The notes under the pieces are model-generated. The model was not told the DNA's origin and searched no databases. It was given only the letters and a program-made list of their open reading frames with translations. Of a stretch of 64,000 nt of DNA, positions 4,138 through 62,709 are shown piece after piece; positions within the stretch are counted from its first letter, which is position 1; every line of letters begins with the position of its first letter. Position numbers and translations under genes: made by a program. Source of the DNA: a bacterium (lineage in GTDB: Bacteria > Latescibacterota > Latescibacteria > Latescibacterales > Latescibacteraceae); the NCBI GenBank assembly GCA_021372535.1, contig JAJFUH010000107.1, forward strand, positions 5,768 to 69,767. The letters run 5' to 3'.

Positions 4138-4482
4138 CCGCCGGTATCGTGGTGTACTTTTTTTTGCTATCAATTCCGATAAAAAAATATTATAATTGTA
4201 GATTCGATAATTATTTTCGGGATTTATCACGACCTGTTCATAAAACTTTAATGAAACGCGGATTTCCAAGGGTCTGACGGATTTCCGCGGATATATTTTT
4301 GTGTCTTTGTGGTTTTCTCATGAATAATCCTCATGACCATACATGAACATAACAAAGGATGAAAAAGTATTTACAGATAAATCCGGGTAACAACATTATT
4401 ATCGGCATTGCCATGTCAGTGAATATCGTGATGAGTTTACGATAACAGGTGATGTCTTGGTTTTTTCCGGTCGGGAGGTATT

Positions 4483-6419: not shown

Positions 6420-6493
6420 TGCCCCGTCGTCCAATGGCAAGACAGCTGACTCTGGATCAGCCTATCGAGGTTCAAATCCTTGCGGGGCAGCCA
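6420..6493 (+). tRNA. tRNA-Gln (anticodon CUG)
   Basis: I folded it by hand. The acceptor stem is TGCCCCG/CGGGGCA, with the U1:A72 pair typical of bacterial tRNA-Gln. The anticodon stem is GCTGA/TCAGC with loop CTCTGGA, giving anticodon CUG. The T-arm is GAGGTTCAAATCCTT (GAGG/CCTT). G73 and CCA are encoded. Confidence 0.85.
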
Positions 6494-18406: not shown

Positions 18407-18453
18407 TGACTCTGGATCAGCCTATCGAGGTTCAAATCCTTGCGGGGCAGCCA
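18407..18453 (+). repeat. Direct repeat of the tRNA-Gln 3' half (from the anticodon stem to CCA). It is a candidate attR.
   Basis: Its 47 nt are identical to 6447..6493. The downstream ~60 bp, including a terminator hairpin, are about 85% identical to the sequence downstream of the intact tRNA-Gln. Confidence 0.9.
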
Positions 18454-39973: not shown

Positions 39974-42433
39974 ATGAAAAAAAATGGTAAAACAAAACAG
40001 CAGCTCTCAGAGGAAATTGAATATCTGCGGCGCAGAATTATAGAACTCGAAACCGGAAAAATCCACACTGAAAGCACCGGTCAACCGCTTCCGGAAGGCA
40101 GGAAGCTTTCCGGTGACTCCCAGGATGGCGTTCGAACACATCCGGGTGACCATAAAGATATTCATGCCGGAATCACGCTTGATTCTGCCTGTAATGGCAT
40201 CCCCGAAGGCGAAGGGATTTCCGGATTACGGGAAATCATTGCCCGCCCTCAGGAATTCCATAAAAAAAACAGAAATCCTGATACATCACGCGGTATTGAA
40301 TCCCCTCAATATTATTCTCCGTACAGCCTGAATTCAGAGAACGAAGGATTGAAATGGTTTCTCCCTGATGGTGTAGTTACGGAGCGCGATAATAACGGTA
40401 ATCCCGTCCGTGTCAGGGGCATCATGGATATTTCGAAGCTCTCGGAAGCCGAAGAAGTACTCCGTGAGAGCGAGGAACAATACCGGATTTTATTTGAAAC
40501 GTCTCTTGATCCGATCGGTATTACAACACAGGGAACAACCGTACGCGATGTTAATCAGGCATGGCTCGATCTTTTTGGATATACACGGGAAGATGTCAGA
40601 GAGATGAATCTGGGCTGTTTATATCTCCGCGACAAAGACCGTCAGAAATATCTTGATGAAATTGACAGAAATGGGAAAGTCCGTGATTATGAAATCAAAC
40701 TCCTGCGAAAAGACGGCATGGTGCTGGACTGTCTTGTTTCGACGACTTTACGCTCTGCGGCCAATGGAGACGGGAAAATATACCAGACCATAATTCGTGA
40801 TATCACCGAAAGGAAACGGCTCCTCGATCGTCTTTCCGTTCTCAACGACTGCTTTCTGAAATTCGGGACCGATCCTCTTGATAATATAAATCAGCTCGTG
40901 GAGACATGCGGGAGGCTGCTAGGTGCCGAATGCGCTTTTTATCATCGCATTTACGATCGGAATCTGTGTGCATGGAACTCATGGCATACTCCTCCCGAGC
41001 TGGAAAATATCAAAAAACCGCTTGGTCACGTGCTCCATGACGCTATCATGAATTCTGAACGCGGTCTCTTTGTCATCCGGGATGTACCGGAATCGGAATA
41101 TCATTTCGATGACCCTGAGCTGAAGAAGTTCGGGTTTAAAACTTATATTGCCAGGATTCTGAAAATCGGGAATGGCCAGATAGGGGCTCTCTGCGTTTTA
41201 TATAAAAAAGATTATAAGCCCACGAATGATGACGAATGGTTGATGGGAGTCATCGCTTCGGCAATTGTTGCCGAAGAGAAACGAAAACTGGCGGAGGATG
41301 CCCTCCGTAAAAGTGAAGAACGTCTGCGTCAGGTTATCGATCTTGTTCCCCACTATATATTCGCGCGGGACACAAAAGGTAAAATTGTCCTTGCAAACAA
41401 GGCTTTCTCGCAAGTGTTCGGAAAAAGCGTCGAACAGGTGACAGGTTCTCATTATTATAATTTGTCCCCTGATAATAATGGTGGAGAAGAAATGTTCAAA
41501 ACCGACCAGGAAACCATTCGGAGTGGCAAACCGAAATACTATCCCATTCAATCGATTACCTTTCCCGATGGCGCAGTTCATATCCTTCAAACGACAAAAA
41601 TTCCGTTTACTATCGCTGACTCCGGTGAACCGGCAATACTCTTCATTTCAGCGGATATAACAGAACAAAAAAAGGCGGAAGAAGCGCTCCGGACATCAGA
41701 AGCTCACTATCGAGAGCTGATCGAGAGCATTAATGATGTTATTTTTGTCATCGATACAACCGGGATATTAACCTATATAAACATGCTTGTTGAGCCGGTC
41801 TTTGGATATTTGCCTTCCGAGGTAATCGGCCAGCATTATACCCGTTTTTTCCTGAAGGAAGACCTCCAGAAGGCATGCAGGTTTTTCCGGAAAAATCTTC
41901 TCGGCCAGCATGACACTGAAGAATTCAGAATTCTCGATAAATCCGGAAAACCCAGGTATATCCGTGCTTCAGCCAGAATATTGAAAAATAATAAAGGGAC
42001 AATCATAGGATTACGAGGTCTTATGATTGATATCACCGAACGAAAAAAAATTGAAAAGAAAATAAGGAAAAGCGGATATCTGGATTCCAGTATATTTGAT
42101 ATACCGTTAAATCCTTTTACGGTAACCACCCATGAAGGCAAAATATTGGATATAAGCCAGTCATGTCTTGACCTTTTCGGCTATACCCGACAGGAGATAA
42201 TGAACATCGATCTGAAAAAAACATATGTCAATCCCGATGACTCTAAAAAGTTATTGCATATGCTGAAAATGAACGGATATGTGAAGGATTTTCCGGTAAA
42301 TTTCCGTAAAAAAGACGGCTCTGTCATCTCCTGTCTTCTGACCGCAAATATGCTGTATATCAACGGAGACTCGCTCCTGGGATACCTTTCATTTATCCGT
42401 GAAGTCCCCGCCCGGAAATCATTCCTTATATAA
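39974..42433 (+). CDS. Multi-PAS/GAF sensor protein with no recognisable output domain
   Basis: The 819-aa protein has several PAS/PAC modules and a GAF-like segment. There is no HisKA/HATPase, GGDEF, EAL or HTH domain. Confidence 0.6.
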   Translation: MKKNGKTKQQLSEEIEYLRRRIIELETGKIHTESTGQPLPEGRKLSGDSQDGVRTHPGDHKDIHAGITLDSACNGIPEGEGISGLREIIARPQEFHKKNRNPDTSRGIESPQYYSPYSLNSENEGLKWFLPDGVVTERDNNGNPVRVRGIMDISKLSEAEEVLRESEEQYRILFETSLDPIGITTQGTTVRDVNQAWLDLFGYTREDVREMNLGCLYLRDKDRQKYLDEIDRNGKVRDYEIKLLRKDGMVLDCLVSTTLRSAANGDGKIYQTIIRDITERKRLLDRLSVLNDCFLKFGTDPLDNINQLVETCGRLLGAECAFYHRIYDRNLCAWNSWHTPPELENIKKPLGHVLHDAIMNSERGLFVIRDVPESEYHFDDPELKKFGFKTYIARILKIGNGQIGALCVLYKKDYKPTNDDEWLMGVIASAIVAEEKRKLAEDALRKSEERLRQVIDLVPHYIFARDTKGKIVLANKAFSQVFGKSVEQVTGSHYYNLSPDNNGGEEMFKTDQETIRSGKPKYYPIQSITFPDGAVHILQTTKIPFTIADSGEPAILFISADITEQKKAEEALRTSEAHYRELIESINDVIFVIDTTGILTYINMLVEPVFGYLPSEVIGQHYTRFFLKEDLQKACRFFRKNLLGQHDTEEFRILDKSGKPRYIRASARILKNNKGTIIGLRGLMIDITERKKIEKKIRKSGYLDSSIFDIPLNPFTVTTHEGKILDISQSCLDLFGYTRQEIMNIDLKKTYVNPDDSKKLLHMLKMNGYVKDFPVNFRKKDGSVISCLLTANMLYINGDSLLGYLSFIREVPARKSFLI

Positions 42434-45570: not shown

Positions 45571-45647
45571 GGGGCTATAGCTCAGCTGGGATGAGCGCCT
45601 GACTGGCAGTCAGGAGGTCGTCGGTTCAATCCCGACTAGCTCCACCA
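45571..45647 (+). tRNA. tRNA-Ala (anticodon GGC)
   Basis: I folded it by hand. The acceptor stem GGGGCTA/TAGCTCC has the G3:U70 alanine identity pair. The anticodon stem is CCTGA/TCAGG with loop CTGGCAG, giving anticodon GGC. The T-arm is GTCGGTTCAATCCCGAC. CCA is encoded. Confidence 0.85.
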
Positions 45648-46522
45648 ATATTTTCGATTTGTTTATTTTAAATTGGAGACATATCCCCACGAGGTTCCTT
45701 TTAGTCCGGAATTCCCTATATCAAAATCATAAGCAGTAAAATTTCTTTTCATATTCTTATTTTAAACGATTACTATCCTATTAATAATCTTATGCAAGTA
45801 TTTTCTTCACGTTGATTTGGATGTAGCCCTCCGGTTTTCTCACTGGCAGATAAATGAATTTTTCCTCGAATCAATCCCGTCTGATGCAGTAGAAAGAGAG
45901 AATAAAAACTTCTCATAGAGAAACATATAATGAAAACGAAAGCAGCCATAATAACAATCGGATTTGTCTGGTCAACAACCGTGTATGTCATGCTTTTCGC
46001 ATCAGTTTGAAGTCTGCTGATAACCATCGTCTGAATTTATCCTTTTCCTTCAAATTAATAAGGCGCCTTTAATGGGTGCCTTTTTTGTTGGGGAAAGTGA
46101 TGGCCTGGTAAATGGTAATTACATATAAGGCGAAAAAAGCGTGTATCAAACCGTATGAGAAAAACAGAGGACTTATTATGTGATAAGTATAAAAATATAG
46201 GGGAAGTGGGTGTTTTACCATGATACTATCGTCGAGAAATTCTTTTATTCAAGCTTCCACAAAATAGCAATACACCCTCTAAAAAACTTCACTAACACAC
46301 CGACTGTTCCAGATTACGAACATTGTTCGGATTTCGGAACATTCCGTTGAGCCGATGAATGATATCGAATCGGAATCGACGTTTCTCATTCCGTTATTTA
46401 ATAAAATAAAAATCAATTAACATCAATAATAACAAATAAATGAATTCTGCACAGTTTTTAAAATGTATGAATGGTATTGTTTTTGCTCTTCTCATGGAAT
46501 AAAAAAACGAAAGGAGAATTAC

Positions 46523-48112
46523 ATGAAAAGAGCAGTTATGATTTCTTGTTTTTCGTTTCTGTCTGTACTTGTCTGTACATATTCGGTTCCGGCTCAGACG
46601 TTGAATACTATTCTGGCCAAGCTCCAGACGGTAGAAGAACGTCTCAACGAGCACGAAAAAAACTCCGGAGCTGAAATATCGAAGCAGATCGATAAAGCTC
46701 TTGCAGTCAGACTCGCATCAATCGAGTCTGACCGAAAAAGCGAGCAGGTGCAGGTGAAGTCGAATTTTGCGAAGGTGGACAGCCTTGCCATCAATACCCA
46801 GATCGATTCTACGATAGCCTCTCTCAGGTCTCAAATCGACCTCCTGCAGGAAAGCGTTAAGGAAATGAAAAATACCATAGAAAATCAGGCTGATGACGAG
46901 AGCAAAGCTGTCGCAATGGCACCACAAAATAATCCTCTCATGACGGCTGCAGGCATGATAAACCACGGAGATCAGGCAATTACAACTACCAGTTCTATCG
47001 AATCGGTTACACCAGTAAACAATTCGACAATGGTCGAAATTGATTATACCCGGTCTCCTTTGGAAATCGAGCATGTTTATTCCGGTGAGTATTTTTCCAA
47101 AATTCACGGGGGTATGGAAAAAAAGAACCGGGGAGATTATCGGGGTAACTTTGATCTGACTGTTTCGGCAAGCAGCGAAGCGCTGGGACTTTGGAAAGGT
47201 ACAACATTCAGCGTTGACTTTCAGAACGGCAATGGCAGAGGTATAAGCGAATCGTATGTTGGTGACTACCAGGTTCTCAGTAATATCGATGCGGGTAACT
47301 TTACCCAGATAAGCGAATACACTCTCTGTCATTCTTTTGCCGGTAACCGGTTCATGATAAAACTCGGCAAACAGGATGCGAATGAGGATTTCAATGTCGC
47401 TGACAACGCGGGCGATTTTATCAATTCTTCATTTGGTATCATGCCGAATGTCCCCCTTCCGACTTTCCCCGATCCCGGGCTTGGAATATCGGTATTCTAC
47501 ACTCTTTCTGACAACATACAAATTAAAGCGGGACTCTTCGACGGCCTTAGTCATGGAGGTTCGTGGGGATTTAACACCGCTTTCAGTTCCCACGGGGAAA
47601 GCAGTTCGGTCATGGAATTATCATATGGTTCGAGCCTTCTGCCGTTCTTTAAAAAACGGGGCACATTCAAAATTGGACTCTGGCGTCACGGCGGTCTGTA
47701 TGCACCTGTTGCAGGAACTGGAAGCAAATCGGAGAACCTTGGCGGATATTGTATCTATGAACAGGGGATTTTGGGTTATGCTGAATCTGATCATCACCAT
47801 GTAGATATGTTTTTGCAGTATGGATATGCTGACAGGGAAATAAGCGCCATACCAAATTATGCAGGAATCGGATTCAAAGCAGACGGTCTCATTACGGGAC
47901 GTCCTGATGACAGTATGGGTATCGGAGCAGCATGTGCGCTTGTTAACCCTGAAATGAAAGACATGAAAGGAGAAACAGCATTTGAATACTATTACCAGAC
48001 AACCATAATGGGTAAACTGACATTACAGCCCGATGTACAATATATTATTAATCCCGGAGGTATGTATGACAATGCACTCGTAACCGGTATGCGGGTATAT
48101 ATTAATTTTTAA
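46523..48112 (+). CDS. Outer-membrane porin with an N-terminal coiled-coil segment (OprB-like or phosphate-selective-like; family uncertain)
   Basis: It has an AAGGAG RBS, a signal peptide, a ~100-aa coiled coil and a beta-barrel-like C-terminus ending in ...YINF. The ORF track start is 46463. Confidence 0.5.
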   Translation: MKRAVMISCFSFLSVLVCTYSVPAQTLNTILAKLQTVEERLNEHEKNSGAEISKQIDKALAVRLASIESDRKSEQVQVKSNFAKVDSLAINTQIDSTIASLRSQIDLLQESVKEMKNTIENQADDESKAVAMAPQNNPLMTAAGMINHGDQAITTTSSIESVTPVNNSTMVEIDYTRSPLEIEHVYSGEYFSKIHGGMEKKNRGDYRGNFDLTVSASSEALGLWKGTTFSVDFQNGNGRGISESYVGDYQVLSNIDAGNFTQISEYTLCHSFAGNRFMIKLGKQDANEDFNVADNAGDFINSSFGIMPNVPLPTFPDPGLGISVFYTLSDNIQIKAGLFDGLSHGGSWGFNTAFSSHGESSSVMELSYGSSLLPFFKKRGTFKIGLWRHGGLYAPVAGTGSKSENLGGYCIYEQGILGYAESDHHHVDMFLQYGYADREISAIPNYAGIGFKADGLITGRPDDSMGIGAACALVNPEMKDMKGETAFEYYYQTTIMGKLTLQPDVQYIINPGGMYDNALVTGMRVYINF

Positions 48113-48178
48113 ACAGATGAAGTAACGTTAGCTTCATGTATCATTTAATCACTCACTCTTGGAAAAGGAAATGTCTCG

Positions 48179-49828
48179 ATGTTCACAAACATGAAACTTT
48201 CAGCGAAAATGACCCTGATGGGCGCAGGCATTGTCTTTGCTCTCGGGATACTCGGATTTATCGTGTACCATTCCAATTCGACCATCAAGGCAACAATGGA
48301 AATCAGCGACGAGATGACCAGTGAAAACAATATCGTCCAGGATACCAGAGAAAGCGAACTCCGTATGATCAGCCTTGTGAGAGCGGCGCTTCTTGACAGG
48401 GAAGATGGTGAAATTGAATCAGGAAGAATGAATACTATTACCCAGTCCGTGGAAACGATAAAAAAGAATCTCGCCGAAATAGAAAAATTAGCGGATAATG
48501 ACGTGGAAAAAGTAAATCTTAAAATAGCCAGCGATAATCTCGATCTCCTGACGAAGATAATTCAGGAAGATTTGGTTAAACTTATTGCACTCTACAAAAA
48601 CAAGGATACCGACCTTGCGAAACTTGAACAGCAGGTGCAGGTTCTCGATTCCCAAATTGAGGAATATGGCAATAAAACAGAAGAGAGTCTTGGTAAAATC
48701 GAAGAATACACGTCCGGGGAGATGAATAAGGCCTCCACAGGTCTTGACAATGCGATTGCGACATCCTCCACGCTGGCACTCATCACGTTCGTGCTCTCTG
48801 TCGTCGGCATTATCCTCGTATTCACCCTCTTTGCGCGTGGTATTATTAAATCACTCAACAACGTTATCGAGGGTTTGACGGCGGGAGCAGAACAAGTTGC
48901 ATCAGCATCACGTCAGGTTTCCGCATCAAGCCAGCAGCTTGCCGAGGGCGCCAGCGAACAGGCGTCGAGTCTCGAAGAAACCTCATCGTCCATTGAGGAA
49001 ATAGCCTCCATGGGCCGTCAGAATGCGGAGAATTCCAACCAGGCCAAGACTATGATGAATGAGGCGCGGAAGATAGTTGAGAAGGTGGATAACCAGATAC
49101 GCGGCCTGGTCGAAGCTACTGAAAAGATCGAAAAGTCGAGTGTGGAAACCGGTAAAATCATTAAAACCATTGATGAAATTGCCTTCCAGACTAACCTGCT
49201 GGCGCTTAATGCTGCGGTCGAGGCCGCACGCGCTGGAGAGGCCGGTGCCGGATTCGCAGTTGTTGCTGACGAGGTGAGGAACCTGGCTATGAGAGCCTCA
49301 GAAGCGGCAAAAAACACCTCCGTCCTGATCGAAAACACCATCAACGCTGTCAAGACCGGAAGCGAGCTCACCAGCTCGACCATGGAAGCGTTTAAAGAAA
49401 ACTCAGAGATATCGGAGAAGATAGGGAAACTAGTCGACGAAATCGCAGCCGCTTCAAACGAACAGGCGCAGGGGCTTGTACAGATTAACACGGCTATTTC
49501 ACAGATGGACCAGGTGACGCAAACAACCGCTGCCAATTCCGAGGAATCGGCTTCTGCCAGCGAAGAGCTCACTTCTCAGGCCTCAGAGCTCAATTCCATG
49601 GTCGAGATGCTTGTTGTTATTGTCGGAGGGAGCAACGGTAACGGTAACGGGCGTGGAGCCATTGCACGGGACGATCATCCGAAAAAGCACTCAGCCGTAA
49701 GTACCAAACTGAATACGCATAATCCGGCTCCGCGGGCGTTGCTTAAAACGAAGTTGAAAACCCATGCGAAGGTTGTCAAGGCCAATGATGTAATTCCGTT
49801 GGATGAAGAAGAGTTTGAAGCGTTCTAA
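48179..49828 (+). CDS. Methyl-accepting chemotaxis protein
   Basis: It has two TM helices and a HAMP-like region. The highly conserved MCP signalling-domain core is present ([36 protein letters not shown]). Confidence 0.8.
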
Positions 49829-49866
49829 TAACGGGAGTTAATTCACGTAAGATAACCTGATGCAAT

Positions 49867-49900
49867 GAAGCGGGGGGTACATTGTGCCCCCCGTTATTTA
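49867..49900 (+). terminator. Rho-independent terminator after the MCP gene
   Basis: A GC-rich hairpin CGGGGGGTACA...TGTGCCCCCCG is followed by TTATTT. Confidence 0.5.
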
Positions 49901-50305
49901 GTCGGTTTGAAAGACTAATTAAACCATATACTTTATTCTTTACAGATATTAAATATCATATAATTGGTATTATATAAGAATTTCACTCTATCTGTTGCGC
50001 GGGGATAACTCTGTCAAGTTAAATTCTTCCAATTCCACTCTCACACTGACTCGCTCTAATGTGCAGAATAATAACGAGTCATCGACAAGGCCTTTCGTGA
50101 GTCCCGCTATGAGATCAAACGAAGGGAAATCCACAGGTTGACAATCAGTATTGAAGCTATCAGCATACAAAGTCTTGTACACCTCGGGCGTGTCACCGTA
50201 ATAGTATGCGTTTTAAATAGCAATTGCTTTGGGCGATACTACTATGCAACATTTTCTCAGGCGATTAGTTTAAAGGGATAATATGAGCTTATAGAGGAAT
50301 AAATC

Positions 50306-53300
50306 ATGACTGCAAAAAAACAAGGCAAAGCGAAAAAATTCGAAACTGCGCTCGCTTCCATGTTCACCGACATCACCGATGGCAGGCTGGCCAAAGAAAC
50401 ACTGCGGGAGAGCGTGGAAATCTATCGATCCATTCTCAAAGCCTCTCCCGATGCCATAACGACCACCGATCTTGATGGTCACATCCTCATGGTTTCGCCC
50501 GCGGCATTGACTATGTTCGGTTACGAACGAGAGGATGAGCTGGCAGGGCATTTGGTTACCGATTTTATCTTCCCCGAGGATCGGGATAAAGCATTATCAA
50601 ATATTGCCCTTATGTTACAGGGTATCATGACGGGGCCGGGTGAATACCGTGGATTGCGTGCTGATGGAAGCACCTTTGAAATAGAGGCAAACGGAGAGTT
50701 AATCCGGGGCGCTGACGGGCAACCTACCAACATAATTTTCGTTATCCGTGACATCACCGGCCGTAAACGTGCAGAAAAGGAGTTGCGGAAGAGCGAGGAA
50801 TTGTTTAAGTCGATGGTGCACAATAGTGATGACTTGACGATTCTGACTGACGATAAAGGCATCGTGATCTATCTCAGTCCTCAGTGTGAAAGCATTCTCG
50901 GATACCCGAGCGACAAATTCATTGGGCAAACCATGCCGGACATTATTTATCCTGACGATTTCGCCAAATGTCAACTTGCATGGGAACAAGTTTTCCACCA
51001 CGGGCAAGAACTGCGCGATTTTGAATATCGTATTATTGATGGTAAACAAGAAGTGCGGTGGATTTCTCATTCAGCAAGACTGGTCAAGGTGGATGGCAAG
51101 GTTTTGGGCATGCAGAACACCATCCGCAACATCACCAAACGTAAACAGGGGATGAGAGCGCTCAGGGAAAGTGAGGAGCGGCACCGGACCATACTCCAGA
51201 CGGCCATGGACGGTTTCTGGCTGGTAGACATGCAGGGACGCCTGCTGGAAGTTAATGATGCCTATTGCCGGATGAGCGGCTATAGCGAGCAGGAACTGCT
51301 GGCCATGAGCATTCCCGATCTTGAAGTCACTGAATCGGCCGCCGACACAGCCGCCCACATCCAAAAGATCATAGCACAGGGCGAGGATCGTTTTGAGTCC
51401 CGGCACCGCCGCAAGGACAGGAGCATTTTTACCGTCGAGATAAGCGTCAAGTACCGACCTGTCAAAGGGGGGTTGTTTGCGGGTTTTATGCGCGACATCA
51501 CCGAGCGCAAGCGCTTAGAGGATGTGCTGCGGATGAGCGAGGAGAAATACCGCAGCCTGGTAGACAACTCCAACGAATCCATACTGGTGGCTCAGGACGG
51601 TCTGCTCAAATTTGTCAATAACAGAACTTCAGAGCTGACCGGCTATTCGGAGCAAGAACTAACTGCTATGCCGTTTTCTGAATTCATCCACCCGGATGAT
51701 CGGGACATGGTGGTTGGAAATTACTTAAGTAGAATCAAAGGAGAAGCCCTTCAGCCCAAGTATGAGTTCAGAATTACTACTCGTGATGGTGTTGTCAAAT
51801 GGGTAGAGATCAACGCCGTCATGATTGAGTGGGAAAGTAAACCGGCTACACTGAATTTTATCAGCGATGTCTCCGAACGCAAACGAACCGAGGAGGCGCT
51901 GCGTGAAAGTGAAGATAAATATCGTACCATTGTGGAACAGTCGGTTATGGGGATAGGGATATCGAAAGGAAATCAGATCATATTTGCCAATAAGGCTTTA
52001 TTACGAATGTTAAATTACGATGATCTTGAGGAATTTAAAAAAATACCTTTATTAGACCACGTTGCCCCATCTTCGCGTCAATTAATCACTGAACGGATGA
52101 CGATGATAGCTGAAGGGGAAATCCCTCCACCGGAATATGAATACGATATAATATCTAAGGGAGGGCTGATCAGGACGTTTCTCGCTTCCAACATTCGTTT
52201 ATCATTAGGAAAAGAGTTTTATATTCAATCAACTTTCCAGGACATTACAGAGCGCAAGCGAGCGGAGGAGGCTCGTGAACGTACCCATAATGAAATGGAG
52301 AATCTCCTTAACAATTTAACCGATGCTATTTTTTCGGTGGATGCTGTTAAAAATACAATGATGATTGTTTCACCCGCACACCAGACAGTGTTTGGCTACC
52401 CGCCATCAGAATTTTTTAAAAATCCGCAATTATGGTACGAACAAGTTATCCCGGAAGATAAACCAATCATAGATGCGGGTTATCCGGTTTTATTTGCAGG
52501 TAATAATCTTCAGCATCAGGTCAGGATAGTTCATCCCGATGGGCAAATACGATGGATTGAAGCAAGATTGAGACCGACACTGGATATTGAAGGAAAACTT
52601 GTTCGGGTAGATGGGATTGTTGCCGACATTACCGAGCGCAAACGGATAGAGGAGGCGCTGCGGGCGAGCGAAGAACGCTTCAGAAAAGTCTTTGAAAGGG
52701 CTCACCTGGGCATTGTCATCACCTCGCCATCATTTAAATTTGAGAAAGTTAATCCGGCTTTTTGCCGCTTAATGGGATACTCGGCGGATGAACTCATTTC
52801 CATGACATTCGCAGATATAACACACCCGGATTACCTCAAGAAGGATATGGAGAATGTAAAGAAAGTCGGACGGGGCGAAATACCCTTCTATCAAACCGAG
52901 AAGCGATATATCAAAAAGAACGGCGATGTACTATGGGGTAACCTTATCGTTTCGAGTATCCGCGATGAGCACGGCGCGTTGCAATATTATCTTTCCATGG
53001 TAAATGACATTACCGAACGCAAGATAGCGGAAGAGGCGCTGCGCGAAGTGAATCAACGCTTTGAAGCCCATATATCCAACTCCCCCCTCGCTGTTATCGA
53101 GTTCGACCCCCAATTTCGTGTCGTCAAGTGGTCTGGCGCGGCAGAACGAATATTCGGCTGGAGTCAGGATGAAATCCTCGGCAAAGCAATTACTGAAATG
53201 CCCTGGGTCTTCGAGGAGGACATGGAATCAGTACAACAAGTGTCTGAAGACATGCTTACCGCCCGGCGTCCAAGTAACCTGAACATCAACCGCAATTACA

Positions 53301-56300
53301 CAAAAAACGGATCGATTATTCAATGCGAATGGTATAACTCTGCTATCTATGATGAGCAGGGACAAATGAGATCAATCTTATCACTCGTACTGGACATCAC
53401 CGAACGAAAATGGGCAGAACGTCGTCAATTACTTTCGGCTGAAATCCTGGGGATTCTTAATGAGGATATTGCCTTCTCTGATGCTGTTAAAAATATTCTC
53501 ATCGCAATCAAACAGGAAACGGGATTCGATGCGGTTGGGATTCGCCTTCGAACCGGCGATGACTTTCCGTATTTTGTCCAGAACGGTTTTTCCGAGGATT
53601 TTCTGCGCACGGAGAATACACTCATTGTCCGTGAAAAAGGTGGCGATGTCTGCAGGGATGAAAACGGCAACATTTCCCTCGAATGCACCTGCGGGCTGGT
53701 ACTTTCCGGGAAAACCGATCCGTCAAATCCTCTTTGTACACCGGGGGGAAGTTTCTGGACAAACGATTCGATTCCTCTCTTAGACCTTATGGCCGACCAG
53801 GATCCGAGGCTTCATCCGCGGAACCGCTGCATACATGAAGGCTTCCAGTCCGTTGCGCTGATTCCCATCCGCGTGAAAGAGGAGATTGTTGGTCTGCTGC
53901 AGCTCAATGATCGTAAAAAAGGGCGCTTAACGCTCGACAGGATTCGCTTTTTTGAGGGGATCAGCGAAAGCATTGGCATAGCGATTATGCGCAAACAGTC
54001 TGAAGATGCGCTGCGGGAGAGCGAGGAGCGATTAAGGCTGGCGCAGAAAGCCACCAACGATGTGATATGGGATTGGAATATTGTCAATGATCAACAGATG
54101 TGGAATGAATCGGGTGCTGTCGTTTTCGGCTGGACAGATATAGTAACAGTTCCGCAAACCGCTGCCTGGTGGGTTGAGAAAGTGCATCCAGAAGATCGTC
54201 AGCGAGTCGATGATGGATTTTTCACCGTAATAAATAATCCAACCGAATCCCGCTGGCAAGATGAATACCGGTTTTTAAAGTCCGATGGAAGCTACGCCCA
54301 TGTGGTGGACAGAGGGTATGTTATTCGGGATACTCAAGGCAAGGCTGTCCGCATGATCGGCGCCATGCTTGACATCACCGAGCGGAAGAAAGCTGAAGAG
54401 TTGCTTTTTCTTTCAAAGCAAAAGTTGGAACAACACGTTAAGCAGACACTGTTCGCTGTCATCGAATGGGACATCGATTTCAGAGTCAGAGAATGGAATA
54501 CCGCAGCCCAACAGATTTTCGGTTATACAAAAGAAGAAGCTCTGGGACAGCATGCCAGCTTCATTATTTCCGAATCCGCAAGAGAACATGTGGATGCTGT
54601 ATGGCAGGCACTTCTGGTTCAAAAGGGCGGTCGCAGGTCGATGAACATGAACATCCGAAAAGACAGCCAGATTATTTCCTGCGATTGGTTCAATACTCCT
54701 TTGACGGATACTCAGGGAAAGACTACAGGTGTAATTTCACTCGCCATGGATGTTACCGCAAAAATACAAGCTGAGGATGCGTTGAAAAAGAGTGAGATAC
54801 GATATCATGAACTGTTTAGCAATATAAGCAGCGGAGTTGCTATATATGAAGCGCGAGATAATGGGAACGATTTTATTTTCAAGGACATGAACAAAGCCGG
54901 CGAACGAATAGATAACGACCGGAGGGAAAATGTTTTAGATAAGAGCGTTTTAGAGGTACGGCCGGGGATTAATGAATTTGGGCTGCTCGATGTATTTAAA
55001 CGAGTATGGAAAACCGGTATTCCCGAATATTTACCCGTGAGTCTATACCATGATGAGCGGTTGACAAAATGGTATGAAAATTTTGTCTATAAGCTTCCTA
55101 CCGGTGAAATAGTAGCAGTCTACGATGATGTGACCGAGCGTAAAAAGTCTGAAGATGCGCTGCGGGAGAGCGAGGAGCGCTTTCAGCAGCTGTTCGATCA
55201 TATGGCAGATGGAGTTGCCGTCTATCAGGCGGTGGATGAGGGTCAGGATTTTGTCATTGTGGACATCAACAAAACGGGACAATCCCTCAGCCATGTTCGC
55301 CTGGACGAGGCGGTTGGCCGACGGGTCACCGAGGTCTTTCCGGGAGTGGAGCGGATAGGGCTTCTGGACGTATTCCGTCGCGTCTGGCGAACCGGCAGGC
55401 CAGAGCATCATCCGCTCACGGAGTACAAGGATGGCCGCATCAAGGAGTGGGTGGAGAACTATGTATATAAGCTTCCTTCGGGATTGATCGTCGCGATTTA
55501 TGAAGACACTTCCGAGAAGCATCGGGCGGAGGAGTTACTCAGGGAAAGCGAGGAACGGCTTGATTCGATAGTGCGTACAATCCCTGACATCATTTATCGA
55601 CTCGATTCTGAAGGGAAAATTGTATTTGTAAATAGTGCAGTAGAACAGTACGGTTATACAACTGATGAGTTAATCGGCAGAGATATACTTGATTTTGTAT
55701 GTCCCCGTGATAGGGAAAAGGCTTCATACAGACTTAATGAGAGAAGAACTGGTGACAGGCATACGAAATCTTTCGAGATACGGTTGATGCGTAAGGATCA
55801 GGTCTGTATAGAATTTGATATAAAATCAGATATAGTTTCCAGCATGCCGGTATTTAGTGTTGATGCCGAAGGGATCTATATAGCCCAGGGGACCAAAAAT
55901 CAGGTGTTTTTGGGTACACAGGGAATCGCCCGCGACATCACCGACCGTAAGCATTACGAGGAGGAAAAGGCTAAACTCGAAGCCCAACTCGCCCATGCCC
56001 AGAAGATGGAGTCGATTGGCTTGCTGGCCGGCGGTATCGCCCACGACTTCAACAATATTCTCTCGATCATTCTCGGATTCGCCCAGATCGCAAAAGAGGA
56101 CACTATACCTCCCGGCAGTTCCATCATCGAATCTCTCGATGAAATCGAAAAGGCGGGATTACGGGCAAGCGATCTTGTCAAACAGATACTGGCTTTCAGC
56201 CGGAAATCCCAGACCGAGCGTCAGCCGTTCAAGGTCGGCCTCGTTATCAAGGAATGCATAAAAATGCTCAGGGCTTCCCTGCCTTCTACCATCGATATCA

Positions 56301-57127
56301 AGTACACAGATACATCATCGTCCGATCTGATTCTCGCCGGGCCCGCTCAGATAGAACAGATCGTCATGAATCTCAGTACAAACGCCAGCCATGCAATGCG
56401 CGATAAAGGTGGAGTGTTAAAGGTTACCCTGGAAGACGTTGTCTTCGATACCAATAACATAACATTGTATCCCGGCCTTGTCCCCGGTGAATATTCAAAA
56501 ATCACGTTCTCGGATACCGGATACGGTATGGACCCCCAAATACTGCCCCATGTGTTCGAGCCGTACTTCACAACGAAGAAAAAAGGCGAAGGAACCGGTT
56601 TGGGACTGTCGGTGGTTTATGGAATCGTGAAAAGCCTGGGAGGGAATATCAGCGTATCGAGCACGATTGGCGTCGGAACAACATTCGAGATTCTGATTCC
56701 GAAGTACCTGAAGAAAGAAATTACGACAGAGGAAAAGCCTGCCTTGTTCAAAGGAGGAAGGGAAAGTATACTAGTGGTTGATGATGAATCGCAGATTGTC
56801 GATATTGAAATGAAGATGTTGAAAAATCTCGGGTATTACGTCACCGGATTTACGAAAAGCGAAGATGCGCTCGGTTTCTTCACCGCCAATTCCGGTTCAT
56901 TCGATGTTGTGATCACCGACCAGACGATGCCGATGATGACGGGTGACGAATTAGCCGCAGAGCTGTTAACGATTTGTCCTGATCTTCCAATAATTCTTTG
57001 TACGGGGCACAGCGATCGTATCGATGAAAAATATATCAGTAAAATCGGTATAAAGGCGCTGTTGTTCAAGCCGGTTACCGTCGCCAATCTGGCTAAGACC
57101 ATCAGAAAGGTTCTGGATGATGAATAA
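50306..57127 (+). CDS. Giant (2273 aa) multi-PAS/GAF hybrid sensor histidine kinase with a C-terminal receiver domain
   Basis: At least 12 PAS/PAC modules are separated by conserved ITERK(R/K)AEEALRESEER linkers, and there is a GAF-like segment. The HisKA H-box (GIAHDFNNILSII) is followed by HATPase_c boxes (GTGLGLSVVYGIV) and a C-terminal REC domain (ILVVDDE...DQTMPMMTGDE). Confidence 0.85.
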   Translation: MTAKKQGKAKKFETALASMFTDITDGRLAKETLRESVEIYRSILKASPDAITTTDLDGHILMVSPAALTMFGYEREDELAGHLVTDFIFPEDRDKALSNIALMLQGIMTGPGEYRGLRADGSTFEIEANGELIRGADGQPTNIIFVIRDITGRKRAEKELRKSEELFKSMVHNSDDLTILTDDKGIVIYLSPQCESILGYPSDKFIGQTMPDIIYPDDFAKCQLAWEQVFHHGQELRDFEYRIIDGKQEVRWISHSARLVKVDGKVLGMQNTIRNITKRKQGMRALRESEERHRTILQTAMDGFWLVDMQGRLLEVNDAYCRMSGYSEQELLAMSIPDLEVTESAADTAAHIQKIIAQGEDRFESRHRRKDRSIFTVEISVKYRPVKGGLFAGFMRDITERKRLEDVLRMSEEKYRSLVDNSNESILVAQDGLLKFVNNRTSELTGYSEQELTAMPFSEFIHPDDRDMVVGNYLSRIKGEALQPKYEFRITTRDGVVKWVEINAVMIEWESKPATLNFISDVSERKRTEEALRESEDKYRTIVEQSVMGIGISKGNQIIFANKALLRMLNYDDLEEFKKIPLLDHVAPSSRQLITERMTMIAEGEIPPPEYEYDIISKGGLIRTFLASNIRLSLGKEFYIQSTFQDITERKRAEEARERTHNEMENLLNNLTDAIFSVDAVKNTMMIVSPAHQTVFGYPPSEFFKNPQLWYEQVIPEDKPIIDAGYPVLFAGNNLQHQVRIVHPDGQIRWIEARLRPTLDIEGKLVRVDGIVADITERKRIEEALRASEERFRKVFERAHLGIVITSPSFKFEKVNPAFCRLMGYSADELISMTFADITHPDYLKKDMENVKKVGRGEIPFYQTEKRYIKKNGDVLWGNLIVSSIRDEHGALQYYLSMVNDITERKIAEEALREVNQRFEAHISNSPLAVIEFDPQFRVVKWSGAAERIFGWSQDEILGKAITEMPWVFEEDMESVQQVSEDMLTARRPSNLNINRNYTKNGSIIQCEWYNSAIYDEQGQMRSILSLVLDITERKWAERRQLLSAEILGILNEDIAFSDAVKNILIAIKQETGFDAVGIRLRTGDDFPYFVQNGFSEDFLRTENTLIVREKGGDVCRDENGNISLECTCGLVLSGKTDPSNPLCTPGGSFWTNDSIPLLDLMADQDPRLHPRNRCIHEGFQSVALIPIRVKEEIVGLLQLNDRKKGRLTLDRIRFFEGISESIGIAIMRKQSEDALRESEERLRLAQKATNDVIWDWNIVNDQQMWNESGAVVFGWTDIVTVPQTAAWWVEKVHPEDRQRVDDGFFTVINNPTESRWQDEYRFLKSDGSYAHVVDRGYVIRDTQGKAVRMIGAMLDITERKKAEELLFLSKQKLEQHVKQTLFAVIEWDIDFRVREWNTAAQQIFGYTKEEALGQHASFIISESAREHVDAVWQALLVQKGGRRSMNMNIRKDSQIISCDWFNTPLTDTQGKTTGVISLAMDVTAKIQAEDALKKSEIRYHELFSNISSGVAIYEARDNGNDFIFKDMNKAGERIDNDRRENVLDKSVLEVRPGINEFGLLDVFKRVWKTGIPEYLPVSLYHDERLTKWYENFVYKLPTGEIVAVYDDVTERKKSEDALRESEERFQQLFDHMADGVAVYQAVDEGQDFVIVDINKTGQSLSHVRLDEAVGRRVTEVFPGVERIGLLDVFRRVWRTGRPEHHPLTEYKDGRIKEWVENYVYKLPSGLIVAIYEDTSEKHRAEELLRESEERLDSIVRTIPDIIYRLDSEGKIVFVNSAVEQYGYTTDELIGRDILDFVCPRDREKASYRLNERRTGDRHTKSFEIRLMRKDQVCIEFDIKSDIVSSMPVFSVDAEGIYIAQGTKNQVFLGTQGIARDITDRKHYEEEKAKLEAQLAHAQKMESIGLLAGGIAHDFNNILSIILGFAQIAKEDTIPPGSSIIESLDEIEKAGLRASDLVKQILAFSRKSQTERQPFKVGLVIKECIKMLRASLPSTIDIKYTDTSSSDLILAGPAQIEQIVMNLSTNASHAMRDKGGVLKVTLEDVVFDTNNITLYPGLVPGEYSKITFSDTGYGMDPQILPHVFEPYFTTKKKGEGTGLGLSVVYGIVKSLGGNISVSSTIGVGTTFEILIPKYLKKEITTEEKPALFKGGRESILVVDDESQIVDIEMKMLKNLGYYVTGFTKSEDALGFFTANSGSFDVVITDQTMPMMTGDELAAELLTICPDLPIILCTGHSDRIDEKYISKIGIKALLFKPVTVANLAKTIRKVLDDE

Positions 57128-58529
57128 AGCAGTGAAAAACGATATTCCAAAAGCCGGTATATTGATTATCGACGATGACAAGGCTTTCTGCAAGATGCTG
57201 TCGGTGAAGCTGAAATCGTCAGGGTATGGTACAGTTTCCGTTCAAACTATCGCGGAAGGGCTGCGGACTGTTACAGAAGGTGCGTTCGATGTCGTGTATC
57301 TCGACGTCAATCTTCCCGACGGGAACGGACTCGATCTGCTGCCCCGATTGCGGAGCATCGAATCATCGCCCGAGGTTATCATTATCACGGGAGCGGGAAA
57401 ACCCGATGGCGCGGAGCTGGCCATAAAGTGCGGCGCGTGGGATTATATCCAGAAAGGTTCCACACTGAACTCGATGATACTTCCCCTCATCCGTGCACTC
57501 GATTACAGGAAAGAAAAGAAAAAGTCATCGATTCCAATCTGCCTTGAGCGTTCCCATATTATCGGAGACAGTGAAGCGATCAATGTCAGCCTCGACAGGA
57601 TTGCGAAAGCGGCGAACAGCGATACCAATGTCCTGATAACCGGCGAGACAGGCGTGGGGAAAGAACTCTTCGCTCAGGCCATTCACAAGAACAGCCGTCG
57701 CAGCGAAAATAATTTCGTTGTAGTCGACTGCGCATCGCTTCCTGAAACCCTTATAGAGAGCATCCTTTTCGGACATAAAAAAGGCGCATTCACCGGAGCG
57801 CACGAGAATCAGAGCGGACTTGTCAAACAAGCCGATGGCGGTACTCTGTTTCTCGATGAAATAGGCGAACTTCCCCTCTCTATTCAGAAAAGTTTTCTCA
57901 GAGTCCTTGAAGACCATTCGTTCATGCCGATAGGCAGCAGCAATCATATAATAAGTGACTTCAGGCTTATCGCGGCTACGAACCGGAACCTCGAAGAAAT
58001 GGTAAGGAGCGACATGTTCAGAGAGGATCTGCTTTACCGGATCAGAGCGTTCGTTATTGAAATCCCGCCACTGAGAGAGAGAAAAAGCGATATTATCAAT
58101 ATATGCTTTCACTATACCCGAAAGATTTGTGAACAATCAGGGATCGATATAAAAGGTTTTTCCCCCGAGTTTTTCGAGATTCTCATGTCATACGACTGGC
58201 CGGGCAATGTCCGCGAGCTGGTCCATATGATCGAAACGGCTATCACCGCCGCCCAGACCGAACCGATACTCCATACCTGGCACCTTCCAGTTGCCCTGCG
58301 GGCACAAATCGCCAGCGATTCCATGAAACATTCCGGAAAAACGGTATCACCTGAAACGTCTGTATCCGGGGATTTCCCGCCCATGAGAGAAGTTCTCGAA
58401 TTAACCGAAAAACAGTATATCCAGAATCTTCTTCGATTTACCCGGGGGAACAGGACGGTGGCATGCAGAATATCGGGTCTTTCACGAACCAGCCTTTTTA
58501 TCCGTATGAAGCACCACAATATCACCTGA
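57117..58529 (+). CDS. Sigma54-dependent NtrC-family response regulator (REC + AAA+ sigma54-activation + Fis-type HTH)
   Basis: It has the REC motif (ILIIDDD...DVNLPDGNG), the Walker A motif GETGVGKE, the sigma54-interaction signature ESILFGHKKGAFTGA and a C-terminal HTH. It overlaps the kinase stop by 11 nt. Confidence 0.85.
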   Translation: MMNKAVKNDIPKAGILIIDDDKAFCKMLSVKLKSSGYGTVSVQTIAEGLRTVTEGAFDVVYLDVNLPDGNGLDLLPRLRSIESSPEVIIITGAGKPDGAELAIKCGAWDYIQKGSTLNSMILPLIRALDYRKEKKKSSIPICLERSHIIGDSEAINVSLDRIAKAANSDTNVLITGETGVGKELFAQAIHKNSRRSENNFVVVDCASLPETLIESILFGHKKGAFTGAHENQSGLVKQADGGTLFLDEIGELPLSIQKSFLRVLEDHSFMPIGSSNHIISDFRLIAATNRNLEEMVRSDMFREDLLYRIRAFVIEIPPLRERKSDIINICFHYTRKICEQSGIDIKGFSPEFFEILMSYDWPGNVRELVHMIETAITAAQTEPILHTWHLPVALRAQIASDSMKHSGKTVSPETSVSGDFPPMREVLELTEKQYIQNLLRFTRGNRTVACRISGLSRTSLFIRMKHHNIT

Positions 58530-58927
58530 TCTTCCCGATAACCATCTCTTCATTTTTTTTAAAATACTCCCCGGTATTACGTATTGTGAACAGTGTTCCG
58601 AATACAGAACATGTCCGCCCTCCTGAATACGAACAGACCCAACATCGATATAACTTCTTGTTATACCGTATTTTACTTTGCCAGTTGTATTGATCCGATA
58701 TGGGTTCATTAGCACACATTTTTAAGGACCTTTATGACAGTTTATGTCAGAAATGTTTTGGTAAAAAATCGTTATATATTATTTTATCATAAATTTATGT
58801 TTGTACTGATTTTCAGACTATTTGTTACTATTTTTCGATGAATTGTAGAATTTGTGTAAATAATGGGAATGCATATGGTTACGCTGATTTTATTAAAAAA
58901 GAATAACTTATGAATATTTTAGTGTTT

Positions 58928-58972
58928 CTGCTTGACATACAGGAGGTCACTGGTTCAATTCCAACAGGTAAT
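58928..58972 (+). repeat. Degenerate tRNA 3'-half-like fragment (a decayed additional att copy?)
   Basis: The sequence TTGACATACAGGAGGTCACTGGTTCAATTCCAACAGG resembles the TGAC...AGGAGGTC...GGTTCAAT(C/T)CC... 3' half of tRNA-Ala. Its T-stem complementarity is broken. Confidence 0.35.
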
Positions 58973-59011
58973 AACTCAGGAGTATTAAGAGATTGCGATA
59001 TATTTTAATCT

Positions 59012-59167
59012 CTCTTCGAGTGTGCCAGTTTGTGCCAGAAATGGTGTGAAATAGAAGAAATTGTGGGAATGGTGAACTTTTTAAGGAATTTTTATAAATG
59101 CAGAGGCCATGACGTATTAGGTTTATTATTAGTGATTTGCGATGGTTGCTGAATCATTGCTCAATTG
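59012..59167 (+). repeat. Conserved AT-rich island-end sequence, copy B. It is homologous to 18271..18405.
   Basis: See copy A. It shares the conserved cores cagtttgtg..agaaatggt and ttataa(g/a)tgcagaggccatg. Both copies end ...tg immediately before the tRNA-derived TGACT. Confidence 0.8.
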
Positions 59168-59215
59168 TGACTGGCAGTCAGGAGGTCGCGAGTTCGATCC
59201 TCGCTAGCTCCACCA
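59168..59215 (+). repeat. Direct repeat of the tRNA-Ala 3' half (from the anticodon stem to CCA), with T-arm compensatory differences. It is a candidate attR.
   Basis: TGACTGGCAGTCAGGAGGTCGCGAGTTCGATCCTCGCTAGCTCCACCA compares with intact 45600–45647 TGACTGGCAGTCAGGAGGTCGTCGGTTCAATCCCGACTAGCTCCACCA. It starts at the same anticodon-stem position as the tRNA-Gln repeat. Confidence 0.85.
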
Positions 59216-59821
59216 AATTTCGTTTTTCACGGAAATCGTCTTTTCGCTGTATCTTCTTTTAATCCCCTGCCTCCCGATATTTCTAATAATATTAAAGGAT
59301 TCCTTGAGTTTATAAATAAACTCCCCATCTTTCCAGATCAGGTTCGAAAATACGATCTTTATTATTGCTTCGGTGGTTAAACAGTGACATAAGATTGTGT
59401 CATGTCGAACTTGTTTCGGCATCTATTCCAAATATCAGTATCATTATTTATTCGCCGGAGCAGTAATTTGCGTTTTTCTTCAGCATTCCGGCTCCAATGC
59501 GAGGGGATCAATCTCATTTTCCCGGAATATTTGATATTATGTATCGTGAACCATCCCTTTACATACCGGCATTATGCCTCACCAATTTTCCCGGTGATTT
59601 CCATCCGTGGACTCCTATAAAGGGGGAATATCGAAAGCTTGTTTAAATCAAGGAAGGGAGCGTAGAAAAGGATACGGAGTAGGCAACCGGAAAGCCAACA
59701 AATCTGATTATCTATCTATGGGATGTATAATGGGTATTTCGGTATTCAGGCAACAGCAGATCAAATCATATAAAAAAATAAACACATCCAAAGCTCTTAA
59801 GCCGCACACTTTTTCTGATTC

Positions 59822-61808: not shown

Positions 61809-62709
61809 ACACCCCTTTTTTAAATGGATATTTCGATAAACAGTAGTGCCCGCAAACTGGGTAGAAATTCTTTGCATATAATAACTTCTTTCTATTATAG
61901 ATGTCAATACTTTTATAGTTTAATGTTTTTAATTCAAGCAAATGACGATGTATTCTCCTGATGTAACAATATCTGGATACAGATGACTATAGAGCGTCGG
62001 GCCGAAAATGGCGAGAATATACCGGTCAGGACCTCCTGCACAAAAGTGGCTTTCGACTGGAACAACGATGCTTATTGTGTGAGACTATCTGACGATTCAA
62101 CGGTACTGCTGCATTCACGGGATCGTGGCGCGACTTTTACTGCATGGACGATACTGGGCACAGGCAGTTTCGACATTGAATAGTTTACCGACCACAAGCA
62201 AACGGACGGGCTGCCGTTATGAGCGCGATTCGTGAGTTACAACTGATTTCATTACTCTGTTACAGGTACAGCCCGGTTTCATCGTTTCACGTTTGATCAC
62301 ATTGTCTACAGTTAAACTTCCCGTATCTTTCCTGGTCAGGTGCACAAATATAGAATACAGATTAAGCAGCCAGAAAGCCAACAAATTCTTCAGAAAAATT
62401 ACTCGTATTTGGTTTAATGTATGCAAGACACTGACTCACAATTTCTGCATCTGAAGTCTTAGCAAAATCATAGATTAATTCCAGATTCCTTCTTGAGCCT
62501 GGCAAATTTGAATTATCAGGTAAGAAATCTGTTGCATACAGGATTTTCTCTTCTTGCTTCTTATGCGCGAAGCATCTTTTTAACATTTATGATAATAGAT
62601 TCAGCATGTATTCTTTTTTACGCCGAAGGTTTCCGTATGATGGCCTGTGTCACGGGCGGTATGGTACTTGTTTTCCCGTGAAGACATAGGATATGTAGGT
62701 TCTTTATTA

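Follow-up and report, generated by a model that had tools for sequence, protein, structure and literature searches.

A probable sigma-54 two-component regulon for a porin and a chemoreceptor in an integrase-less insertion at a tRNA-Ala gene

We describe here a four-gene sensory module in a 64-kb stretch of bacterial DNA (the window, to which all coordinates below refer unless a contig is named). In line with what a first-pass annotation had proposed, open reading frame (ORF) calls and Pfam matches agree on an OprB-family porin (46523-48112, also placed by its ribosome-binding site), a methyl-accepting chemotaxis protein (MCP; 48179-49828), a 2273-residue hybrid histidine kinase (50306-57127) and an NtrC-class sigma-54 activator (57117-58529), all on the forward strand. 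We hold with moderate confidence that 45,649-59,216 entered the 3' half of a tRNA-Ala(GGC) gene long ago and is now without an integrase, and that its cargo is a self-contained sigma-54 two-component regulon in which phosphate passes directly from kinase to activator, an exact repeat inside the kinase gene being a conversion tract in an old mosaic of PAS units. A two-component sigma-54 regulon in a tRNA island combines two known kinds of system, and current understanding is not overturned by it. The locus nevertheless brings together sensor, activator, candidate sites, promoter and outputs within about 12 kb in a poorly studied lineage, probably Latescibacterota, and is hence compact enough for each link of the circuit to be tested directly.

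The porin-MCP operon and its control region

Although the porin ORF is longest when begun at 46463, the signal peptide and an AGGAG box match a start at 46523. Both hallmarks of the OprB family of carbohydrate-selective porins were found, namely a full-length match to PF04966 (E = 2e-40, profile positions 2-372 of 372, at residues 222-549 of the 549-residue ORF from 46463) and, at the N-terminus, one hydrophobic segment read as a signal peptide. Unlike those porins, that of the window has an N-terminal extension of ~200 residues, rich in charged and polar residues and outside the OprB match, and its gene shares an operon, probably sigma-54 dependent, with an MCP gene that starts 66 nt downstream in the same orientation. 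The MCP likewise combines the signalling domain (PF00015, MCPsignal, E = 4e-43) and transmembrane sensor topology of its family, with two transmembrane segments (residues 7-25 and 191-209) and a periplasmic region of ~165 residues. The operon is closed by a hairpin terminator at 49869-49895 on the forward strand (-22.8 kcal/mol, z = -4.4, followed by UUAUUU).

Upstream of the porin are two tandem 18-bp palindromes of the form TGTTC-N8-GAACA, TGTTCCAGATTACGAACA and TGTTCGGATTTCGGAACA (46305-46341, starting at 46305 and 46324), which also belong to a 24-nt inverted repeat. The 64 kb contain three exact copies of TGTTC-N8-GAACA, each flanking the porin/MCP/kinase/activator module, against a background of 3 per 1.2 Mb of unrelated loci, and the tandem pair is a candidate upstream activating sequence to which the activator would bind. 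A sigma-54-type promoter, TGGTATTGTTTTTGCT (46472-46487, forward strand; -24 GG, -12 GC), follows the palindromes at a distance of 130-170 nt and precedes the porin start codon by 36 nt. The palindromes at that distance upstream support this candidate promoter, as does a perfect TGGCAC-N5-TTGCT at the equivalent position in a related locus, L110. Since the palindromes occur only around the module, the promoter is well placed, a terminator follows the MCP gene and L110 carries an orthologous set, we read these elements as a single circuit in which the kinase and activator probably switch on the porin and the chemoreceptor. An output of this kind would fit the view of Francke et al. (PMC3162934), who argued that sigma-54 controls mainly the cell exterior.

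Three results weigh against the circuit. The promoter at 46472 reads TGGTAT-N5-TTGCT, which includes two mismatches, and by itself has no statistical significance (16 hits versus 25 expected). No sigma-54 promoter accompanies the third palindrome, there being no GG-N10-GC on either strand of 58500-59250. Furthermore, TGTTC-N8-GAACA is not conserved beside activators of ~50% identity in 80 genome loci, so that the palindrome can be attributed only to the activator of the window and not to its family.

The L110 locus, on a metagenomic contig, was recovered through a porin search and contains, in order, tRNA-Thr, a PAS/GerE regulator, the activator, repeats and promoter, a 130-residue gene (g130), the porin, the MCP, a terminator, the kinase and an IS4-type transposase. 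Identity to the window is 46% for the activator, 50% for the porin and 60% for the 549-residue MCP over its full length, and the kinase, of 1345 residues, has a dCache domain, five PAS, HisKA, HATPase and a receiver (REC). Ahead of g130-porin-MCP are a pair of exact 19-nt tandem repeats and a sigma-54 promoter with a perfect TGGCACCAATATTGCT; no remnant of the 130-residue gene or of the transposase was found in the window. The L110 tandem repeats lie 22-67 nt after its activator gene, and the third palindrome of the window is an orphan at 58594-58611, 65 nt after the activator stop codon. Most simply, given these positions, the orphan would be the relic of an L110-like gene order.

Relatives from Desulfuromonadales also have sigma-54 promoters just downstream of the activator gene. 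Those in L001-L016 precede genes for a multihaem c-type cytochrome (~360-370 residues, several CxxCH) and a b-type cytochrome (~220-230 residues), while MCP genes follow such promoters in L014 and L017; what follows the kinase-activator pair in L001 and L002 is instead a further AAA+ activator-like gene without a receiver. The cyclic order of kinase, activator, sites/promoter and targets is kept in the window, L110 and Desulfuromonadales and is cut at different points, a permutation of the kind that passage through a circular intermediate would give, as would tandem duplication with later loss.

The kinase-activator pair and the route of phosphotransfer

The kinase is soluble, with no transmembrane segment. 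Its domains run as eight PAS, GAF, five PAS, HisKA (PF00512), HATPase_c (PF02518) and REC (Response_reg, PF00072), the PAS part matching many Pfam PAS families, in agreement with the architecture first proposed except that the count, then given as at least 12 PAS units, can now be set at 13 PAS-sized units from the periodic DIT-ERK...ALRESEE linkers (eight before GAF and five after). Ten of the 13 match Pfam PAS families when scanned singly, and the divergent PAS11 and PAS12 match a hidden Markov model of the other eleven (E = 6e-8 and 2e-14, respectively). All the features of a HisKA-type hybrid histidine kinase are present with intact motifs: the H-box histidine (HDFNN at residue 1913), the ATP-binding domain with G-boxes at 2070 and 2096, and the fused receiver (DQTMPMM at 2205). 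A search of 5.8 billion proteins found the 2273-residue protein itself deposited at NCBI and more than 7000 multi-PAS proteins at E < 1e-50, many of 2000-3700 residues, none more than about 33% identical over a large part of the kinase length. Judged from these matches, the size and PAS count of the kinase are ordinary for environmental bacteria, while its particular array has no close relative on record.

Among NCBIfam models, the kinase core best matches a VirA-like one, and also CckA, with scores well under the equivalog cut-offs. Like VirA/VirG and CckA-type kinases, it has HisKA, HATPase and a C-terminal receiver with no fused Hpt; unlike them, it has an unrelated sensor part, scores far below the cut-offs for their models and is paired with a sigma-54 activator, rather than with an OmpR- or CtrA-type regulator.

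The activator comprises Response_reg (PF00072, residues 15-120), Sigma54_activat (PF00158, E = 6e-66), AAA_lid_14 and HTH_8 (PF02954, residues 427-465). The GAFTGA motif that had been noted before was located at residues 223-228, along with GETGVGK at 176 (Walker A), LFLDEIGE at 244 (Walker B) and YLDVNLPD at 61 in the receiver, and the protein thus has the AAA+ domain with GAFTGA and Walker motifs, the N-terminal receiver and the C-terminal helix-turn-helix (HTH) of the NtrC class. Its best NCBIfam matches are AtoC and NtrC, all under equivalog cut-offs. As in the NtrB/NtrC class (AtoS/AtoC, ZraS/ZraR), a receiver, AAA+ domain with GAFTGA and Fis-type HTH are combined in the activator, the kinase gene is immediately upstream and palindromes precede a -24/-12 promoter, which in the window is putative. 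The differences are that the window pair reaches no NCBIfam equivalog cut-off, that its kinase is a soluble 13-PAS hybrid with a receiver of its own, and that its output would be a porin and a chemoreceptor, whereas relatives of the pair drive a multihaem cytochrome and cytochrome b, or MCP genes.

The 11-nt overlap reported earlier between the kinase and activator genes is seen in the ORF coordinates, and the activator is predicted from it to be translationally coupled to the kinase. The absence of an Hpt domain (PF01627), which had been remarked on as a gap in the relay from hybrid kinase to activator, was also borne out by Pfam in all four module proteins, but it is not an anomaly. In more than 10 independent loci, the gene of a REC-bearing kinase (~730-1300 residues, most ~770) either overlaps the activator gene or ends 0-30 nt before it, and no gene lies between the two in any of these loci or in the window. 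From their last PAS through HisKA and HATPase to REC, these kinases show 31-40% identity to residues 1746-2271 of the window kinase, the range being 36-40% for those of ~770 residues. As so many relatives pair a REC-kinase directly with the activator, the missing linked Hpt is a property of the family. The receiver of VirA is regulatory. Given the gene overlap, the REC-kinase/activator pairs of the relatives, the VirA-like best match and the intact catalytic motifs, it is more economical to suppose that the kinase histidine passes phosphate straight to the activator and that the fused receiver acts as a modulator, as it does in VirA.

The alternative is a four-step phosphorelay, in the style of LuxN/Q-LuxU-LuxO, from the kinase histidine to its own receiver, then to an unlinked Hpt protein and on to the activator. 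The kinase receiver is intact with its aspartate motif, relays from a hybrid kinase through Hpt to a sigma-54 activator do exist, as in LuxN/LuxQ to LuxU to LuxO of Vibrio (PMC5394107), CckA-type cores, which that of the window resembles, use a separate ChpT (PMC9430884), and an Hpt protein may be encoded elsewhere in the genome, beyond the 64 kb. These points count against direct transfer. However, the Vibrio hybrid kinases, which likewise control a sigma-54 activator, require the Hpt protein LuxU, whereas no Hpt is found in or beside the module or in the kinase-activator pairs of its relatives, tight gene coupling, as in the overlap of kinase and activator here, is usual for direct partners, and it is a VirA-like model that best matches the kinase core. 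We therefore regard a phosphorelay as somewhat unlikely and retain direct transfer.

In the mechanism that we infer, running from kinase to activator, promoter and porin/MCP, the cytoplasmic kinase would integrate intracellular signals through its 13 PAS units and one GAF domain and autophosphorylate on the HisKA histidine. The phosphate would then go directly to the receiver of the activator, the C-terminal receiver of the kinase acting as a modulator or phosphate sink and not forming an obligatory relay step. Phosphorylated activator would bind the tandem TGTTC-N8-GAACA at 46305-46341 and open the sigma-54 promoter at 46472, and transcription of the porin and chemoreceptor genes would tune outer-membrane uptake and taxis in concert.

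The exact intragenic repeat and the PAS array

The first-pass annotation had also pointed to exact 32-nt repeats at 53999 and 55148 in the kinase gene, described as encoding SEDALRESEER linkers between PAS units and taken as a sign of recent internal duplication of PAS modules. The 32-mer has exactly two copies, at those positions, and shuffled windows contained none, even with 3 mismatches allowed; the match is really 34 nt long (53997-54030 and 55146-55179, forward strand). Both copies do encode SEDALRESEER, but only the second lies in a linker between two PAS units (PAS11 and PAS12), the first being at the GAF-to-PAS9 junction. They are 1149 nt (383 codons) apart and in frame, and belong to a ten-copy linker family whose members are otherwise 60-78% alike. 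With the codon usage of the kinase gene itself, identical codons for the same 11-residue peptide would arise by chance at about 8e-6, from which it follows that the copies have a recent common ancestor at the DNA level.

That ancestry does not extend to the units around them. Nucleotide identity ends after about 45 nt, the copies are preceded by a GAF domain in one case and a PAS domain in the other, and PAS9 and PAS12, the units that follow, are 29% identical with the shared linker included. Similarity through whole units, as expected of a recent tandem domain duplication, is thus not found in the repeat-bearing units. All unit pairs are 1-33% identical except PAS8/10 (38%) and PAS11/12 (48%), and the latter duplication is old, as PAS11 has a 60% ortholog in the L110 kinase (the second PAS there), which is 50% identical to PAS12; a PAS11-like unit is thereby identified as the sensor unit conserved between the two kinases. 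By comparison, a multi-PAS kinase in L023 has a 32-nt exact linker repeat within units that are 65-70% identical in amino acids and ~85% in nucleotides throughout, a pattern that we interpret as true recent module duplication and that the window kinase does not resemble.

Hence a recent tandem duplication, in a gene expanding now and prone to recombination, is a very unlikely reading, even if the repeat is exact, in frame and at unit boundaries 383 codons apart, and PAS11 and PAS12 are paralogs. A repeat of 34 nt could in principle support RecA-mediated deletion, and recombination between the copies could possibly delete PAS9-11 cleanly. The simplest reading, considering the codon identity, the collapse of identity outside ~45 nt and the divergence of the flanking units, is that gene conversion copied a short tract, ~45 nt at most, from one helical linker to another. 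A multi-PAS gene may thus carry an exact internal repeat without any recent duplication.

GC content at third codon positions (GC3) in 125-codon blocks of the kinase gene ranges from 0.36 to 0.68 (chi2/df = 4.25, p = 9e-9), while chi2/df is 0.4-2.8 for most other genes in the window and 4.72, on only four blocks, for Reg_prop614. This variation suggests that the gene is an old mosaic of PAS cassettes. It could also be invoked, together with the origin of the sequence in a metagenome-assembled genome, for the repeats being an assembly artefact that fused pieces of different PAS genes. We judge this extremely improbable: reading frame and unit phase run on across both copies, NCBI has a record of the same 2273-residue protein, the stretch from PAS11 to the kinase core aligns colinearly with the L110 kinase, and the final k-mers of common metagenome assemblers are longer than 34 nt.

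More speculatively, and in our estimate unlikely, multi-PAS arrays may be rebuilt by short-tract recombination on linker DNA, with PAS cassettes swapped between genes or genomes, and the kinase-activator-promoter-target set may travel as a circular cassette. Such travel would explain the circularly permuted gene order in the window, L110 and the Desulfuromonadales relatives and, if cassette swapping is true, the 34-nt patch and the unit-to-unit GC3 mosaic would be its footprints.

At the start of the kinase gene (50306-50430), a linker remnant, FTDITDGRLAKETLRESVE, lies only 19 residues from the kinase start, which gives the array the look of having been truncated within a former unit, and the 410 nt upstream contain many stop codons in the kinase frame.

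The tRNA-Ala insertion, its origin and its surroundings

The module lies, as had been stated, between att-like repeats of tRNA-Ala. The left copy (45600-45648) is the 3' 49 nt, from anticodon stem to CCA, of an intact tRNA-Ala(GGC) at 45571-45647 on the forward strand (ARAGORN; Rfam, 63 bits, which found only the two tRNAs), which we take as the regenerated target on the attL side. The right copy, the putative attR core, is a displaced 3' fragment at 59168-59216 (forward strand) that matches the intact gene at 42 of 49 nt (86%). Its seven differences make up three compensatory T-stem pairs and one T-loop base, and the fragment therefore derives from a different but functional tRNA-Ala. Consistent with this, L096 and L100 contain intact tRNA-Ala genes that share the 5' half of the window gene and whose 3' end the fragment matches at 49/49 nt, and intact metagenomic tRNA-Ala genes with the exact 5' half of that in the window carry either T-stem variant.

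To the left, 45649-46298 is gene-poor (no ORF above 86 residues) and occupies the position of the integrase in related elements. To the right, a degraded fragment resembling a tRNA 3' half (58929-58977, forward strand; 61% to that of tRNA-Ala), probably an older att remnant, is followed by GTGTGCCAGTTTGTGCCAGAAATGGTGTGAAATAG, about 110 nt and the displaced fragment. The same layout, homologous degraded fragment included, is found in the integrase-bearing L104, which shares 36 of 38 nt in the conserved, P-arm-like right end (59020-59167, forward strand, with direct repeats GTGTGCCAG and TTGTGCCAG). The last 110 nt and the fragment recur in L102, where the sequence just upstream of the tRNA fragment is ~72% identical to 59050-59167.

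Scanning metagenomes with the tRNA-Ala 3' half, variable positions left open, returned 21 loci. Isolated 3' fragments without the 5' half were present in nine contigs, and in six of the loci (L085, L087, L093, L094, L095 and L097) isolated fragments were 100% identical to the window tRNA 3' half over 51-53 nt. Tyrosine integrases (PF00589) directly adjoin tRNA-Ala or a fragment in L088, L103, L104 and L105, and a frameshifted one does so in L090. From these contexts, tRNA-Ala(GGC) is evidently a recurrent target of tyrosine integrases and a hot spot in the lineage; as a recurrent site with several integrase variants, it could help to delimit islands in these genomes. Neither the att core nor the conserved arm sequence gave a match when viral contigs were scanned.

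Insertion is therefore our reading, as the region runs from an intact tRNA to a displaced 49-nt fragment, integrases adjoin the same tRNA elsewhere and the right end is shared with L104 and L102. In Islander (PMC4383910), a regenerated tRNA and a displaced fragment mark island endpoints. The window has this frame, with the intact tRNA on the left and its 3' part directly repeated on the right, its crossover begins in the anticodon stem, and tyrosine integrases use the same tRNA in related contigs. It differs from the tRNA-targeting islands catalogued by Islander in having no tyrosine integrase inside, and its second degraded fragment and conserved arms suggest successive events followed by decay.

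Several observations weigh against this reading. No integrase, excisionase or remnant was detected by ORF, Pfam or six-frame analysis of 45648-46522 and 58530-59821. No syntenic empty site was found, and no tRNA lies close to the 76%-identical relatives of the TIM-barrel gene that flanks the island; the reconstructed unsplit tRNA does occur in metagenomes, but in non-syntenic contexts. In addition, the closest named relatives of the porin are from Latescibacterota, the probable phylum of the host, and the GC3 of the module (0.44-0.55) is like that of its immediate neighbours (0.44-0.59), a block at 27-38 kb being higher (0.65-0.73). Since the integrase is absent, the 13.5-kb insertion looks decayed and not mobile now. 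Of the earlier proposal that the module is horizontally mobile, insertion at tRNA-Ala is hence supported, but not mobility, for which the lack of an integrase or remnant and the porin homologs from the probable host phylum are unfavourable.

The probable assignment of the host follows from the flanking TIM-barrel gene, whose relatives at 76% are accompanied by Latescibacteria- or Latescibacterota-named ones at 64-70%, and the T9SS sorting tails elsewhere in the window agree with a group of the Latescibacterota type. Porin homologs reach 60% and 50% identity, the Latescibacterota-named ones 46-47%; no module of this kind was present at the loci checked for the closest (60%, L111) and two others (L106 and L108). 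By contrast, in GTDB species-representative genomes the activator and kinase core are closest to those of Desulfuromonadales (Desulfuromusa, Geobacteraceae and others) at 45-53%, versus 35-39% for the activator in other phyla, including Latescibacterota.

These data bear on whether an integrative element delivered the sensory genes at all. The tRNA fragments could instead be relics of small, lost elements, with the module having arrived by ordinary rearrangement within the lineage. The missing integrase, the Latescibacterota relatives of the porin and the unremarkable GC3 would all suit such a history, as would L102, in which the same frame of tRNA, arm and fragment holds only a YdjC remnant and an MscS gene, so that the frame may predate its content. 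On the other hand, DNA between a regenerated tRNA and a displaced fragment is inserted DNA by the mechanism of integration (PMC4383910), the closest activator and kinase-core relatives are from Desulfuromonadales, and the surroundings of the orthologous L110 module, with tRNA-Thr and an IS4 transposase, are unrelated. We thus consider arrival without an element fairly unlikely and keep to insertion at tRNA-Ala, the module appearing foreign to this position, whether it came in one piece or several.

Further features were noted at this and other sites. The gene-poor left end contains a 26-residue hydrophobic ORF (MKTKAAIITIGFVWSTTVYVMLFASV, 45930-46010) and then a hairpin terminator (46060-46082, -15.8 kcal/mol, z = -2.9). 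L102 (JABUBP010000294.1) reads, tRNA-forward at ~2868-4626 of that contig, ligA, tRNA-Ala, a C-terminal YdjC remnant (64% to the YdjC of the window), MscS, a 110 nt arm homologous to window 59050-59167, and a tRNA fragment split by 23 nt; the reverse complement of this insert adjoins a group II intron reverse transcriptase in L103. Capture of the L102 YdjC and MscS genes from a window-like neighbourhood by imprecise excision was considered and rejected, as the gene orientations do not fit. L094 and L095 (Ga0233430_1006221 and Ga0233431_1007953) have an isolated tRNA-Ala att fragment, followed by a weak Replic_Relax match (E = 1e-4, below the curated cut-off), a repeat protein of 652 residues and a gene resembling those of type IV pilins. 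Neither contig contains an integrase, and they may represent a different kind of element at the same tRNA-Ala site.

Beyond the island, sigma-54-like motifs TGGCTTTCCGGTTGC and TGGCTTTCTGGCTGC, at 59683-59697 and 62366-62380 on the reverse strand, lie inside a 35-nt repeat whose copies are 83% identical. The first points into ~470 nt of gene-less DNA running toward the island end, a place where the 76%-identity TIM-barrel relatives carry a second YdjC gene and an MscS gene; in L081, one such relative, no sigma-54 promoter lies between the TIM-barrel gene and the second YdjC, and the motif at 59683-59697 is thus unsupported by it. Two genes upstream of tRNA-Ala, 39974-42433 encodes an 819-residue protein with at least four PAS domains and no recognisable output domain. 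A second att-like pair is formed by tRNA-Gln(CTG) at 6420-6493, the last 28 nt of which are repeated exactly at 18426-18453, 12 kb downstream. It bounds part of a low-GC region (GC3 0.30-0.50) with BlaR1-like M56 peptidases and T9SS-tailed proteins, and a BlaR1/BlaI pair is also found beside the tRNA-Ala att fragment in L085.

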